From: an uncultured Candidatus Saccharibacteria bacterium
Lineage (GTDB): Bacteria > Patescibacteriota > Saccharimonadia > Saccharimonadales > 2-12-FULL-41-12
Assembly: GCA_964615775.1 (NCBI GenBank)
Contig: CAZTQB010000003.1
Coordinates: 39,172-103,171, forward strand
Direction of reading: 5' to 3'
Length of the DNA: 64,000 bases
The notes under the pieces are model-generated. The model did no database searches. It was not told the origin of the DNA and saw only the letters and a program-made list of their open reading frames with translations. Every line of letters begins with the position of its first letter. Within the stretch, counting starts at the first letter, position 1. Positions 2,892 through 32,090 of this stretch are shown here, piece by piece. The translations under genes and the position numbers were made by a program.

Positions 2892-3434
2892 CTAGATGAA
2901 TTTAGTAAGCTCAGCATTCTTAAACGGTGAGCCACGCTTTTTTAGTGACTGGTTTTTGATACGTCTGTGTAGGGCTCGGCCAAAGGCTCCGTGACCGACC
3001 ACCAAAATTGTCTGAGCGTCCAAACTACACAAATATTCATAAAATTCATTAGCACGTTTTTGTAAGTCTTTTAGCTTTTCGACGTCTTTGTACGAGTCGA
3101 TTGCCGACTCGTCAATTGCATATTTGGTTTTGGCAACTAATCTTTTGTTGCCCTCTAGTTCTCCAAAATCTCTTTCTATTGATTCTGGTCGGATGATGAT
3201 TTTTTTGGCATCATACTCTATTTCTTTGCCAAAAATTTCGGCTGTTTGCTTGGCTCTAGATAGATTTGAGGAGATAATCAAGTCAAACTTTAGACCTTTT
3301 TGCTGTGCTAAATATCCAGCTGTCCTAGCCTGCTCTTTACCTTTATCTGTAAGTGGCGTATCGCTAGAACCAGCCCAGGTCCTGGCTTTATTAAACTCAC
3401 TTTCTCCATGTCTAATAAAATACAAATGTTTCAT
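2892..3434 (-). CDS. Histidine phosphatase family protein (phosphoglycerate-mutase-like)
   Basis: N-terminal RHGESEFN motif (RHG catalytic signature) and a later VVGHGAF motif. Confidence 0.8.
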   Translation of the reverse strand: MKHLYFIRHGESEFNKARTWAGSSDTPLTDKGKEQARTAGYLAQQKGLKFDLIISSNLSRAKQTAEIFGKEIEYDAKKIIIRPESIERDFGELEGNKRLVAKTKYAIDESAIDSYKDVEKLKDLQKRANEFYEYLCSLDAQTILVVGHGAFGRALHRRIKNQSLKKRGSPFKNAELTKFI

Positions 3435-3985
3435 ATTTTTTTATACCAATCTAGAAAATCGTCCCAAAGCTTCCGGCCAGCACAATATTTGTCCAGATCT
3501 TTTTTTAAAAGCTCGTTTAGCGGAGTTTTGTCGTCTACAAAACTAGTGACCTGGAGTATCGGGGTACCTGGTCGAGACGATGCTTGGTCGATGAATTTTC
3601 GCTCATGGGTTTCTTCAAAAATAGTAATCAAGCCATTTTTATTGATGTATGCTAGTCTTGCAGTAAGATAAATTGTTTTATCTTGATAGTTCTTCATAAT
3701 TTTTAGCCAGTCGCTAGCAGTAAACCAGTGGTTCATCGACTTCATATACGGTCCCGGAAAGCCATTGAGAGCAGGTATAGACCAGCAATCGTCGCTTACT
3801 AAGAGTGGCTTGTTGATTTTATCAAAAACGCTCTTAGCCTTATGTTTAATAATCTCTATAGGGTCTTCGGACTGCACCTCATCTACTTGATTGTCGATTT
3901 GTTCTAGTTCGACACCGTGTTTTTGGCAGGCGAGCTTGGCAAACTTAAGTTTGTCTGGGTTGGATGTACAGAAAATTAAACTCAT
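3431..3985 (-). CDS. Ham1/RdgB-type non-canonical purine NTP pyrophosphatase (ITPase family), paralogue 1
   Basis: Motifs FCTSNPDKL, DEVQSEDP and NGFPGPYMK. The start was placed at Met14 (3985) because the track start at 4024 would overlap tilS. Confidence 0.75.
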   Translation of the reverse strand: MSLIFCTSNPDKLKFAKLACQKHGVELEQIDNQVDEVQSEDPIEIIKHKAKSVFDKINKPLLVSDDCWSIPALNGFPGPYMKSMNHWFTASDWLKIMKNYQDKTIYLTARLAYINKNGLITIFEETHERKFIDQASSRPGTPILQVTSFVDDKTPLNELLKKDLDKYCAGRKLWDDFLDWYKKI

Positions 3986-28839: not shown

Positions 28840-29475
28840 ATGCGACTTTATTTATCATCGCAAAATGTTGGTAATCATGTACATAGACTGGTAGATATGG
28901 TTGGTAAAAATAGAACGGTCGCCTATATCAGTAATGCCAAAGATTATTCAAGTTTGGAGCGAAGATTGAAAATTCCGGTGCATCGAACTGAGTTTGAGTC
29001 TCTAGGTTTTAAGTTTAAGGAGTATGATCTACGCAAGTATATTGGCAAATCAACTGAACTGGAAGCAGAAATTACTAAATTTGGCTTAGTTTTTGCTACC
29101 GGCGGTAACACATTTTTGCTTCGCAGAGCGATGCACGATTCTGGTTTAGACAAAATTATTATTGAGGGTCTTAAAAAAGATAAGTTTGTATACGGTGGCT
29201 CGAGTGCCGGTTCGATAGTGGCCTGTCCTTCACTTAAAGGCGTAGAAACTGGTGATGATCCAGAGGCAGTAGAAAAAATATACCATAAAGAAGTTATTTG
29301 GGAAGGTTTAAATCTGGTTAACTTTTACCTGTCGGTTCACCATGGCTCAGCTTGGTTTGGTCGCGAGGCAGAGGCAATGGTAGATTTTTTTAAGCTTCAC
29401 AATATGCCTTATAAAACCCTAAGTGATGGGCAAGTATTGGTTGTCGACAACGATAAACAGGAAATATTAGTATGA
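28840..29475 (+). CDS. Peptidase S51 (dipeptidase E-like) family protein
   Basis: VFATGGNTFLL and YGGSSAGSIVA (nucleophile Ser context). Its stop overlaps the ruvC start (ATGA). Confidence 0.7.
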   Translation: MRLYLSSQNVGNHVHRLVDMVGKNRTVAYISNAKDYSSLERRLKIPVHRTEFESLGFKFKEYDLRKYIGKSTELEAEITKFGLVFATGGNTFLLRRAMHDSGLDKIIIEGLKKDKFVYGGSSAGSIVACPSLKGVETGDDPEAVEKIYHKEVIWEGLNLVNFYLSVHHGSAWFGREAEAMVDFFKLHNMPYKTLSDGQVLVVDNDKQEILV

Positions 29476-29942
29476 GAATTTTGGGGATAGATCCGGGTAC
29501 TGGTATTTTGGGCTTTGGTGTGATTGAGGCTAGCGGCTCAGGCAAGGTGAAATTGGTTGATGCTGGGGTAATTACGACTCCGGCTAAGCAAGAAGACAGC
29601 TTACGGCTACTAACAATTTATGATGAATTAACAGAAGTAATTAAGCAAAATAAGCCCGATGTCATGGTAGTGGAGAAATTGTTTTTTGCTCAAAATGTAA
29701 CAACTGCAATGAGTGTTAGTCAGGCTAGAGGAGTTGTACTCTTGGCTGGCATAAAAGCTAAGCTTAGTTTGTATGAGTATACTCCTCTACAGATTAAGCA
29801 GGCATTGACAGGCTATGGTCGAGCCGACAAAAAGCAAATCCAAGAAATGGTTCGGGTTATTTTGGGACTAAAAGAAGCTCCTAGGCCAGATGACTGTGCT
29901 GATGCTTTAGCGGCAGCTATTTGCTACACTATGACAAATTAA
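29472..29942 (+). CDS. ruvC: Holliday junction resolvase RuvC
   Basis: MRILGIDPG, VVEKLFF and DDCADALAAAIC motifs. Confidence 0.9.
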   Translation: MRILGIDPGTGILGFGVIEASGSGKVKLVDAGVITTPAKQEDSLRLLTIYDELTEVIKQNKPDVMVVEKLFFAQNVTTAMSVSQARGVVLLAGIKAKLSLYEYTPLQIKQALTGYGRADKKQIQEMVRVILGLKEAPRPDDCADALAAAICYTMTN

Positions 29943-29960: not shown

Positions 29961-29985
29961 TGCGTCAAGGTCCGACCTTGACGCA
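29961..29985. repeat. Palindromic hairpin (REP-like), left copy
   Basis: TGCGTCAAGGTC-c-GACCTTGACGCA with 12-nt arms. Confidence 0.9.
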
Positions 29986-29993
29986 AAGTGAAC

Positions 29994-30620
29994 TTATTGA
30001 TCAACTGGACTGGCAAGCTCCCATTTTAGCTCATCGATTATATTTTTTTGACCTTGGTAGTCTTCTAGAAATTTCATATATTCTTTAGGTGACTCAAATA
30101 AAGAAAAAATAGTCTGAGTATCTAGCCAATTGCATTTGCGGTTACCAGAATAAAAATCGATACTTGTATGTTTGTTTTGACGCCAATTTTTGGGATTTAG
30201 ATGAATATAGCGTGATATGTGAATATAGTAATCTTCGGAAGTAATAAGAGATCCAAGGTACTTACTGCCAAATAGTGGGCCACGTCGCTGGTATTTTTTA
30301 TTAAAATATATGCTATAGCTTGTCATTATTGATTGCATAAATTTGGCGATACTGTGAGGGTCTTCTGCTTGATAAATAAATAGATGAATATGGTTTGGCA
30401 TTAGGGCATATGATAATAGTTTTAATTCGTCGGAGAAGCTCTTATATTTGTGACGAGTAGAGCTGATGGCTATCTTTTTAGATAAGTATCTTTTAAATAG
30501 TCCAGTAAACATAGCATAATCTGCTTCATCACGAAAGATTAATTGTTTGTTAACACCCCTGTTGTACACATGATAATAACTGAAAGCCGAGTATTGCTTA
30601 ACTACATTTTTTGTTGGCAT
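29994..30620 (-). CDS. IS200-like / REP-associated tyrosine transposase (HUH, Y1 class)
   Basis: HUH motif in LMPNHIHLFIY and catalytic-Tyr motif SRYIHLNP. The start was set at Met13 (30620) because the track's N-terminal 12 aa are the translation of the hairpin. Confidence 0.75.
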   Translation of the reverse strand: MPTKNVVKQYSAFSYYHVYNRGVNKQLIFRDEADYAMFTGLFKRYLSKKIAISSTRHKYKSFSDELKLLSYALMPNHIHLFIYQAEDPHSIAKFMQSIMTSYSIYFNKKYQRRGPLFGSKYLGSLITSEDYYIHISRYIHLNPKNWRQNKHTSIDFYSGNRKCNWLDTQTIFSLFESPKEYMKFLEDYQGQKNIIDELKWELASPVDQ

Positions 30621-30630
30621 ATTTATATTA

Positions 30631-30655
30631 TGCGTCAAGGTCGGACCTTGACGCA
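30631..30655. repeat. Palindromic hairpin (REP-like), right copy
   Basis: TGCGTCAAGGTC-g-GACCTTGACGCA, the exact reverse complement of the left copy. Confidence 0.9.
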
Positions 30656-30678
30656 AGAGGAGTGTGGGATAATGGGGT

Positions 30679-31260
30679 ATGATTAGTTATCTTTTTGGGG
30701 AAGTTGTAGCCAAGGATTTGGATGAGGTGGTGGTTGATGTGGCTGGAGTTGGCTATGGTATTCGGATGAGTTTAGTGGATTATGAAGCAGTAGTTTTGGG
30801 TAGTAAGACCAAGCTTTTTATCTATGAGAATATTAGAGAAGATAGCTATGATCTGTATGGCTTTTTGGATCAAAGTACGATCAAGTTATTTAATCAGCTG
30901 CTGAGTGTAAAAAACGTTGGACCTAAAGTAGCCTTGGCAATCTTAGGGATTGGTCCACAAAGCGTGGTTAAACAAGCGATTGCCAGTGGTGATATCAAAA
31001 GAATTCAAACTGCCAAAGGCGTAGGCAAGCGAGCATCAGAGCAGATAATTGTTGAATTGCGTGACAAAGTCGGACTCATTAGTAGCGACGAAGCTGAAGG
31101 TGTCGTAACTCGTAGCGGGATTGATCTTGACGACGAAGCTGTGCAGGCTTTAATCGCTCTTGGTTACAGCGAATACGATGCTCAAAAGGCTCTAGCAGCC
31201 ACCGACAAGACTGCCGACACCGAAGCTCGTATCAAACAGGCTTTAAAAAATAGATTTTGA
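30679..31260 (+). CDS. ruvA: Holliday junction branch-migration protein RuvA
   Basis: MISYLFGEV..., HhH motifs (LLSVKNVGPKVALAIL, IQTAKGVGKRASEQII) and a C-terminal domain III. Confidence 0.9.
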   Translation: MISYLFGEVVAKDLDEVVVDVAGVGYGIRMSLVDYEAVVLGSKTKLFIYENIREDSYDLYGFLDQSTIKLFNQLLSVKNVGPKVALAILGIGPQSVVKQAIASGDIKRIQTAKGVGKRASEQIIVELRDKVGLISSDEAEGVVTRSGIDLDDEAVQALIALGYSEYDAQKALAATDKTADTEARIKQALKNRF

Positions 31261-31328: not shown

Positions 31329-32051
31329 CTAGCCATTAAAATCAGCCCAAGGATTCAGAGGAGACATCTGTCTGTAAGAGCTGCCAGTGACAACAAGTTC
31401 ACGTAAAGCATTTTGCGTCCTATCGATAGTTCTTGCTGCCTCTGGCTCATTGCCTGTCGTAGCAGAAAGTATAAATTTACCCAACCTCTCGCTATAGTTT
31501 GTGGTAACAAAAATTCTTCCAGTACCTTGATTATGCATTCGAGTTACTAGCTCCGTAAATTCTTTGCCAGCAAGTGCGTATGGTTGATTGAGGTCATCAA
31601 TAATTATATTTTCTGCAGTAGAAGACGTTATGGAACCCATTCTGGTTGTCGGTACGTTAAAATAATCGATTTTGTCATAACTCTTTAGAGTAATAGCTTT
31701 TGCTAGGCCTATCGCTATGTGGCTTTTACCAACTCCGGCTGGCCCCGAGGACCATAATCCCATGAAAATATTGTGGGTTGCTCCTGCAATGAACGAAGCA
31801 GCTCTTAGTAGCCTCTCTTGGCTAGGGTTTTGAGGCTTATAAGTCTCTAGTCTAGAGGCCGTGTTTTCGGGCGGTAGGTTGTGTGCTAGTGCGAAGTTTA
31901 TGTCTTGAGCTAAATAATCTTCAGGGATTATTGCTTTACCAACCAAAAGACCTTCATGCACTGAAAGGCCGGCGTGAACATTGACTAGTGTACTTGAATA
32001 TTTTTCGGGTACGTCTTTTACGTCTAAATTTATTTCATATATATTTGCCAT
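31329..32051 (-). CDS. DnaC/DnaI/IstB-like AAA+ ATPase (possible helicase loader)
   Basis: Walker A GPAGVGKSH, Walker B IIIDDLN and sensor-like FVTTN. The start was set at ATG 32051, because the track start is the TTG of a TTGACA box followed by an (AAT)7 run. Confidence 0.6.
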   Translation of the reverse strand: MANIYEINLDVKDVPEKYSSTLVNVHAGLSVHEGLLVGKAIIPEDYLAQDINFALAHNLPPENTASRLETYKPQNPSQERLLRAASFIAGATHNIFMGLWSSGPAGVGKSHIAIGLAKAITLKSYDKIDYFNVPTTRMGSITSSTAENIIIDDLNQPYALAGKEFTELVTRMHNQGTGRIFVTTNYSERLGKFILSATTGNEPEAARTIDRTQNALRELVVTGSSYRQMSPLNPWADFNG

Positions 32052-32061
32052 TATTGCAACT

Positions 32062-32090
32062 ATATTATTATTATTATTATTATTTGTCAA
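32062..32090 (-). promoter_or_regulatory. Putative promoter whose spacer is the microsatellite
   Basis: Minus-sense TTGACA (32090-32085), a 17-nt spacer made of AAT repeats, then TAATAT (32067-32062). ATG follows 10 nt later. Confidence 0.4.
32064..32084. repeat. Trinucleotide microsatellite (ATT)7 / (AAT)7
   Basis: Seven perfect units, read directly from the sequence. Confidence 0.95.

Follow-up and report, generated by a model that had tools for sequence, protein, structure and literature searches.

We analysed a unit of 695 bp (29961-30655) that lies between ruvC and ruvA in a stretch of 64,000 nucleotides (the window; contig CAZTQB010000003.1) from an uncultured Candidatus Saccharibacteria bacterium. 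The unit holds a gene for a 208-aa protein of the HUH/Y1 type (HUH, histidine-hydrophobic residue-histidine), similar to the REP-associated tyrosine transposases (RAYTs; REP, repetitive extragenic palindromic), and on each side of this gene a perfect palindrome of 25 nt with 12-nt arms and a 1-nt centre. The two 25-mers, written here as TGCGTCAAGGTCSGACCTTGACGCA, are exact reverse complements of each other because their central bases are complementary. The left REP is separated by 8 nt (29986-29993) from the stop codon of the RAYT gene, and the right REP, located upstream of the gene, by 10 nt (30621-30630) from its ATG. The original prediction, made from the letters of the stretch, described a minus-strand gene with HUH (PNHIHL) and Tyr (RYIHLNP) motifs, bounded by 25-nt palindromes at 8 and 10 nt from the coding ends; both motifs were read in the 208-aa open reading frame (ORF), and the spacing and the size of the unit were confirmed in the sequence. 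Five independent public assemblies reproduce the RAYT locus base for base, with at least 99.7% identity. The features of the window, together with the in-frame copies of the repeat in relatives (see below), are collected in Table 1.

Table 1 Features of the ruvC-ruvA region in the window and in-frame REP copies in other loci (designated L)
Feature	Positions	Strand	Remarks
ruvC, left neighbour	29472-29942	plus	Pfam RuvC, E 1.5e-50
Left REP hairpin site	29961-29985	.	TGCGTCAAGGTC-C-GACCTTGACGCA; 18 nt past ruvC stop
RAYT-type HUH/Y1 gene, 208 aa	29994-30620	minus	ATG 30618-30620, stop 29994-29996; intact
R137-Y138-I-H-L-N142-P143 codons (SRYIHLNP)	30192-30212	minus	Tyr138 codon 30207-30209; Y138 presumed catalytic
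HUH codons H77-I78-H79 in LMPNHIHL	30384-30392	minus	Metal-binding motif
Right REP hairpin site	30631-30655	.	TGCGTCAAGGTC-G-GACCTTGACGCA; 23 nt upstream of ruvA ATG
Extended -10-like element TG-N-GATAAT (TGGGATAAT)	30665-30673	plus	Between right REP and ruvA
ruvA, right neighbour	30679-31260	plus	Pfam RuvA_N, HHH_5, RuvA_C; E 1.3e-17
uvrC in-frame copies	L039:5812-5865, L051:6063-6116, L056:4960-5013, L034:7443-7496		54-nt doublet (18 codons)
dus in-frame copies	L052:1387-1411, L011:5799-5823, L060:3120-3144, L055:201-225, L058:2538-2562		
U5-methyltransferase (trmA-like) in-frame copies	L048:2084-2108, L045:5469-5493, L007:2462-2486		
truB in-frame copy	L059:1321-1345		
uvrB in-frame copy	L037:1357-1381		
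smc in-frame copy	L036:3645-3669		

As single-stranded DNA, each window hairpin was predicted to form a stem of 11 bp and a loop of 3 nt, with a folding energy of -12.9 kcal/mol (z about -7; -7.4 for the left hairpin). Four exact matches to the 12-mer arm were counted in the window, all at the RAYT locus, and the number of arms observed when up to two mismatches are allowed was reached by none of 100 shuffles of the window. The RAYT gene is present once in the 64 kb, with no further full copy of the unit. The GC content of its coding sequence was 33.3%, lower than the 39.5% of the window and the 42-43% of ruvC and ruvA, and within the lowest 2% of windows of the same size. An Rfam search (E up to 1) gave no match, and intrinsic-terminator prediction showed no terminator-like site at the window hairpins.

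The protein matched the Pfam family Y1_Tnp with 35 bits, above the cut-off, and the NCBIfam IS200 model with 16 bits, below its cut-off of 55; of the NCBIfam models, REP_Tyr_transpos scored higher than IS200, though also below its cut-off (see below). A homologue search (E <= 0.001) retrieved about 2,000 proteins; among the best 120, all the source-given organism names but one were Saccharibacteria or Saccharimonadales and, the window's own protein aside, identities to the window RAYT were 47-59%. In an alignment with 35 homologues H77, H79, Y138 and N142 were invariant and P143 nearly so, i.e., the catalytic residues are present, and the window protein keeps all 32 residues that are invariant in the family. 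A profile alignment placed the HUH motif and the Tyr of the family on their counterparts in ISDra2 TnpA. The signature Y-x3-NP, which corresponds to class 2 TnpAY1 (the RAYT class), is present as RYIHLNP, whereas the Y-x3-Q signature of IS200 (PMC6006769 Table 1) is absent. The AlphaFold (AF2) model had a pLDDT of 88.9, and its top Foldseek match in the PDB was 4er8_A (E 2e-6, 171 aligned columns), the E. coli structure entitled 'REP associated tyrosine transposase bound to a REP hairpin', followed by the ISDra2, IS608 and IS200 transposases. Sequence searches of the PDB gave a marginal IS200 match only with the single protein, and ISDra2 at E 0.004 with the profile; 4ER8 was recovered by the fold search alone. 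The family consensus is NHIH, FQ and YIHLNP, with T-S following the core, and by these motifs its nearest subclass is 2.1, for which NHVH/NH[YF]H, W[EQ]/FQ and YIELNP/Y[IV]HLNP are given; the window protein has FG at the second motif. The nearest relatives in a plasmid collection (27-30% identity) were also of the subclass 2.1 type: a Sporomusa protein of 295 aa with a Bac_DnaA_C-like tail and a P. aeruginosa protein with YIELNP/WSS. The family of the candidate phyla radiation (CPR) has its own insertion of 15-20 aa before strand 2, and a Pfam search of residues 142-208 (E up to 10) revealed no credible match and no DnaA_C-like helix-turn-helix (HTH).

Copies of the hairpin without the gene were found in relatives, 4-21 per genome. 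A scan of one genome per species (185,579 species; the window's organism is not among the species representatives) for the pattern TGCGTCARGG-N5-CCYTGACGCA gave 56 loci, 52 of them in CPR and four in other taxa, the latter about chance level by estimate. Copy counts per genome are lower bounds, read only from the loci fetched around exact pattern matches: at least 21 in JAEUQV01 (11 contigs), at least ten in JBATSO01, seven in JBGAWL01 and six in CAYROK01 (several contigs each), and at least eight in four loci of the complete 1.23-Mb genome CP064992.1. The copies were singlets or inverted doublets with spacers of 4-70 nt; the two members of a doublet can pair to give a single long hairpin (-35 kcal/mol). 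Some of them share extended flanks, e.g., ACAAAAWRCGAACA, so the repeated unit can exceed the 25-mer. The variant flanking the RAYT gene of a lineage is the one dispersed in the same genome, e.g., in MGCQ01 (TCGTA core) and CAYZFT01 (TCSGA core), and this match is the cognate relation that defines REP/RAYT pairs. The perfect-palindrome variant of the window was present as two solitary intergenic copies in CAZIID01. Across 11 lineage variants, seven of the 12 stem pairs had changed on both sides with complementarity kept, and 96.9% of the cells were paired, compared with about 30% when the partner columns were slid; this covariation supports selection on self-complementarity. Several contigs of short-read metagenome-assembled genomes (MAGs) end exactly in the 25-mer (L024, L032, L046 and L016); the first three are from JBATSO01, whose RAYT locus is broken across three contigs. 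The repeat therefore fragments short-read assemblies and may be under-counted in MAGs.

Besides intergenic sites, conserved genes of the relatives contain in-frame REPs, either the 25-mer alone or an inverted doublet of 54 nt, and several genomes share the insertion site (Table 1). The doublet peptide (ASRTDPDA..LRQGPSLT) was present in six of the 120 closest UvrC proteins and in decayed versions in a few; the closest of all (90% identity) has a short uninterrupted linker without the insert, and most of the others are alike. Filled and empty alleles in close orthologues are the prediction for a mobile repeat. The window itself, searched for uvrC, dus, trmA-like, truB, smc and uvrB as an empty-site comparison, contains none of these genes. 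At one and the same dus codon position, the asymmetric REP core was found in opposite orientations (L052, LRQGRTLTQ; L011, LRQGPSLTQ), and likewise in the methyltransferase gene (L045 versus L048 and L007; NASRTDPDA versus VASGSVLDA). These opposite orientations suggest either that the core flipped between the outer arms of 7 nt or that the insertions were independent. A DNA uptake sequence, a candidate prompted by competence and by the enrichment in repair genes, was rejected on the small number of copies found per genome, which track the Y1 gene.

The cassette occupies the ruvC-ruvA junction in 13 genomes, including that of the window. All of the first relatives examined have the RAYT gene between ruvC and ruvA and antisense to them; its flanks carry TGCGTCAAGGACGGACCCTGACGCA and the reverse complement of this sequence, mostly as inverted doublets on either side. 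At L064 the gene shares the strand of ruvC and ruvA and has the perfect palindrome GCTAGAGGAC-W-GTCCTCTAGC at its flanks; at L062 it is located away from them, amid glycosyltransferase genes; and a Paceibacterota homologue (L022, 30% identical), flanked by GCGTCAAGGCG-W-CGCCTTGACGC, is not at ruvC/ruvA either. Universal synteny, which the first three relatives had seemed to show, was thus ruled out by L062 and by a RuvC-anchored sample of metagenome contigs, unbiased as to RAYT, in which most junctions were empty. The 54 resolvable loci of this sample (26 more were not resolved) comprised 47 compact junctions with gaps of 18-361 nt, one RAYT (L077) and six other inserts, e.g., a pilin-like gene (L086) and a membrane protein (L081).

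Where the junction is compact, the stop codon of ruvC falls within TG-N-GATAAT, some 8 nt ahead of the start codon of ruvA. All carriers keep this element on the ruvA side of the cassette, and their ruvC genes have new C-termini (..YTMTN* in the window, ..MTVR* in cassette-free relatives); no such hairpin was found at the junction of cassette-free relatives. In the window and the junctions of L066-L118, the element lies 5-10 nt upstream of the ruvA ATG. From the compact junctions, the retained element and the new ruvC ends it follows that the cassette breaks up a junction which is normally compact, with the 3' end of ruvC as the point of interruption. The original prediction had proposed this interruption of a normally contiguous pair and a comparison with relatives; the comparison bore it out, most junctions being empty and those with the RAYT gene having hairpins beside it. 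The TG-N-GATAAT element itself may be the ruvA promoter, which would imply a leaderless mRNA or one with a very short leader.

In a neighbour-joining (NJ) tree of RuvC+RuvA, built without support values, the carriers fell in at least four places among non-carriers. RAYT and RuvC+RuvA identities were incongruent: 75% and 55% between L001 and L035, 49% and 76% between L035 and L064, and 56% and 87% between L003 and L077, respectively. The patchy distribution and this incongruence indicate that the site was recurrently colonised or the cassette repeatedly lost. Two histories fit the data: repeated acquisition or replacement, and one old insertion followed by many losses with bursts of RAYT/REP co-evolution. 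For the E. coli tnpA-REP gene an early gain with later losses has been described (PMC3333891). The window cassette is not a one-off recent insertion, with the same family at the same junction in 13 genomes and proteins only 47-59% identical to that of the window.

Some further observations concern the junction and its surroundings. At L077, a gene for a 211-aa membrane protein (3154-3789, minus strand) lies between two REP copies of the lineage (3102-3827) and adjoins the RAYT gene; it looks like a passenger inside the REPtron (a RAYT gene with its REP hairpins). The cassette-free spacer of 131 nt at L072 (2963-3092) contains three unrelated hairpins (ATCCCAAA/TTTGGGAT, ATCCCGAC/GTCGGGAT and TTCCAGC/GCTGGAA) which, together with the inserts at L086 and L081, suggest that the junction is a general landing site. 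The RAYT gene of CP064992.1 (L020) has an apparent frameshift, but ruvB of the same locus is also fragmented, and assembly indel errors are likelier than a pseudogene. In the window, an ORF of 253 aa between ruvA and ruvB (31329-32090, minus strand) has a poly-Asn N-terminus, a P-loop (GPAGVGKS) and a sub-threshold match to PF00910; gene callers left it uncalled on the 99.7%-identical contig L148.

Taken together, these results indicate that the window unit is probably a REPtron: an intact, presumably single-copy RAYT-type gene with its two cognate REP hairpins, resident at ruvC-ruvA. The original prediction had left the choice between a REPtron and a minimal IS200; the first is preferred, on account of the Y-x3-NP signature in place of Y-x3-Q, the best fold match to 4ER8 and the dispersal of the cognate hairpin in relatives. 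By extension, the hairpin would also be dispersed in the window's own genome. In the mechanism that we propose, each 25-mer would fold in single-stranded DNA into a hairpin of 11-12 bp, and the RAYT would recognise the folded REP and cut near it through a 5'-phosphotyrosyl link, with Tyr138 as nucleophile and His77 and His79 holding the metal; by rejoining strands it would copy or move REP units around the chromosome, so that the hairpins multiply while the RAYT gene itself stays single-copy. The model is E. coli TnpA-REP, which cleaves and recombines single-stranded REP/BIME DNA (BIME, bacterial interspersed mosaic element; PMC3333891); it engages the hairpin in monomeric form, depends on Mn and is auto-inhibited (PMC3333891, PMC3479197). 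Binding and cleavage of single-stranded DNA by the window RAYT, its choice of strand and its cleavage site are presumed from this analogy. An effect of the hairpins on ruvC or ruvA expression is conceivable, one of them lying after ruvC and the other beside the -10-like element before ruvA.

Several observations weigh against the REPtron reading. The window has no copy of the palindrome beyond the two at the RAYT gene, and the exact 25-mer of the window type had no match in a metagenome scan. Classical REP hosts have hundreds of copies per genome, and the 4-21 found in relatives are few by comparison. The protein scored 41.1 bits with NCBIfam REP_Tyr_transpos (NF047646), below the cut-off of 80, and its FQ motif reads FG, Gly replacing Gln118, a residue that is nearly invariant in the family. 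Its nearest non-CPR kin are of subclass 2.1, reported not to be REP-associated. The flank columns of 69 oriented REP copies showed no conserved tetranucleotide and no unpaired 5' GT[AG]G tag; TnpAY1 subclasses 2.6 and 3 are likewise without this tag. A binding site that is symmetric in duplex DNA would account for the covariation of the palindrome just as a hairpin does. Finally, hairpin binding, cleavage and strand transfer on single-stranded DNA are known only from E. coli TnpA-REP (PMC3333891, PMC3479197).

A further proposal goes beyond residence: the REP-RAYT-REP cassette would be a site-specific mobile unit that colonised ruvC-ruvA, or was swapped there, several independent times in naturally competent Saccharibacteria, its own hairpins seeding in-frame insertions in genes, e.g., uvrC, dus and trmA. 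We put this forward tentatively, as possible rather than probable.

Among the rival explanations, the one that survives best takes the whole REP-gene-REP cassette for a mobile IS200-like unit with one preferred target and several horizontal entries, instead of a domesticated resident; we consider it unlikely. The lack of a cassette in 47 of the 54 resolvable RuvC-anchored loci, the four or more separate places of the carriers in the NJ tree and the incongruent identities in three locus pairs all favour such a unit, although the tree has no support values and one old insertion with many losses, as in E. coli tnpA-REP (PMC3333891), plus bursts of co-evolution could yield the same pattern. The cassette occurs at the site in both orientations (L064), its RAYT gene is low in GC (33.3% against 39.5%), and its position, with the last codons of ruvC on one side and the -10-like element of ruvA on the other, is the scar expected of an insertion. 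However, there is one copy per window or locus, near-identical copies between genomes are limited to L001/L042, and any transfers would be old, given the identity of only about 50% among proteins that share the site. Moreover, the Y-x3-NP signature and the length of 208 aa are unlike IS200, the ends are identical inverted palindromes without distinct left and right ends (LE and RE), and the hairpins are dispersed without the gene.

That the RAYT was domesticated for a host role with its neighbours, e.g., in processing hairpins or cruciforms with the RuvABC Holliday-junction machinery, with the dispersed hairpins as functional substrates, seems very unlikely. Such a role would agree with the recurrence of the gene beside ruvC/ruvA in small streamlined genomes, with REP copies in the DNA-repair genes uvrC, uvrB and smc, and with an intact and conserved protein; yet most relatives have the same ruvCAB genes without RAYT, L062 carries it among glycosyltransferase genes, the Paceibacterota homologue (L022) is also off ruvC/ruvA, and unrelated genes occupy the same junction (pilin-like at L086, membrane protein at L081). 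Least probable of all, and hardly credible, is that the palindromes serve the host in regulation (as a bidirectional terminator or insulator, a 3' stabiliser of ruvC mRNA or the operator of a dimeric regulator) with the HUH gene as an unrelated passenger: the left hairpin does lie 18 nt past the ruvC stop between convergent genes and the right one between divergent genes beside the conserved -10-like element, a symmetric duplex operator equally predicts the stem covariation, and REPs elsewhere are credited with terminator and mRNA-stabilising roles (PMC3733652), but the hairpins have no T-tract and were not detected as intrinsic terminators, the same 25-mer is found in frame in uvrC, dus, the methyltransferase gene, truB, uvrB and smc, where a terminator or operator would be senseless, its variants follow the RAYT lineages, and the junction hairpin is absent from cassette-free relatives.

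REP hairpins with a RAYT are a known kind of system, and what is new is their occurrence in Saccharibacteria and the CPR. To our knowledge, REP/RAYT systems have been characterised almost solely in Proteobacteria and a few other phyla, and our literature search found no publication linking RAYT/REP, or the 25-mer, with Saccharibacteria or CPR. If the reading is correct, gene-dense episymbiont genomes of about 1 Mb can maintain a hairpin-and-enzyme system, and with so little intergenic space the hairpins would land in frame inside conserved genes. Since the enzyme is nearest to the 'REP-less' subclass 2.1, the repeat may be a candidate for the cognate hairpin of this branch. Should the REPtron be mobile as a whole, it would move between genomes and home to one chromosomal address, and a large subclass-2.1-like branch of Y1 proteins regarded as 'REP-less' would gain a cognate hairpin substrate. 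Recurrence at one junction, together with the incongruence of gene and host, makes this a tractable case of domestication versus transfer, and Saccharibacteria are now described as genetically manipulable via natural competence (PMC10633639). For annotation, we suggest that such genes be named RAYT-like and not generic 'transposase'.

Compared with known systems, the unit resembles the IS200/IS605 TnpA elements (IS608, ISDra2) in the HUH/Y1 fold, the catalytic residues and the hairpins near the gene ends. It differs from them in Y-x3-NP in place of Y-x3-Q, in a protein of 208 aa as against about 130-150 aa, in ends that are identical and inverted and not a distinct LE and RE, in having no tnpB, and in the lack of multicopy identical elements (in the 64-kb window, with one gene copy per fetched locus in relatives). 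With the Rickettsia palindromic elements (RPEs) and other intragenic REPs it shares palindromic repeats in frame in coding genes, including repair genes (PMC3733652), whereas RPEs are longer and the CPR repeats have a cognate Y1 gene and a CGTC that is base-paired in the stem. RPE-4 and RPE-6 are CGTC-tagged REPs without a dedicated transposase in the scheme of Di Nocera 2013, where such REPs have an unpaired CGTC, a stem of 8-9 bp that begins with A/T pairs, a loop of 4-5 nt and CCA as a tail. A CGTC-tagged REP was tried and rejected for our repeat: the arm contains CGTC (positions 3-6), but paired with GACG in the stem and without a CCA tail, and the architecture differs.

Subclass 2.1 (Bertels Group 1; the TIRYT/TIRtron of Di Nocera 2013) shares N-H-u-H, FQ, Y[IV]HLNP and [ST]S after the core with the CPR family; it is set apart by an identity of about 27-30%, by a DnaA_C-like HTH that the CPR family lacks and by the extra 15-20 aa of the latter before strand 2. 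The flanks also differ, the CPR ones being perfect or near-perfect hairpins of 21-27 nt and those of TIRYTs long terminal inverted repeats (TIRs), many with GGGGWSAS. The subclass was reported to be without REPs (PMC6006769). As in the CPR, some TIRYT genes have self-complementary repeats at their flanks, which make up small dispersed families (Di Nocera 2013). The Pseudomonas REPIN-RAYT systems (subclass 2.5/Group 3) likewise have inverted REP doublets which can fold into a long hairpin, both dispersed and flanking a RAYT at a fixed chromosomal site; unlike them, the CPR system has a much smaller repeat population, another RAYT subclass, no GTAG and frequent in-frame coding insertions. A parallel in architecture is the E. 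coli REPtron (TnpA-REP/RAYT YafM, PDB 4ER8, subclass 2.2), in which an HUH/Y1 gene with Y-x3-NP is flanked by inverted hairpins that are also dispersed (here, in relatives), which is the best structural match, and which varies in presence and absence among its relatives (PMC3333891). The two RAYTs are only 13% identical over the structural alignment and sequence searches do not retrieve one from the other; the window protein also has a helical C-terminal extension of about 65 aa, and the CPR hairpin is without a GTAG tag, in tens and not hundreds of copies, many of them intragenic and in frame. The window unit is not an IS200, and its motifs, its fold, the inverted repeats at its flanks and their dispersal in relatives are the core features of a REPtron.

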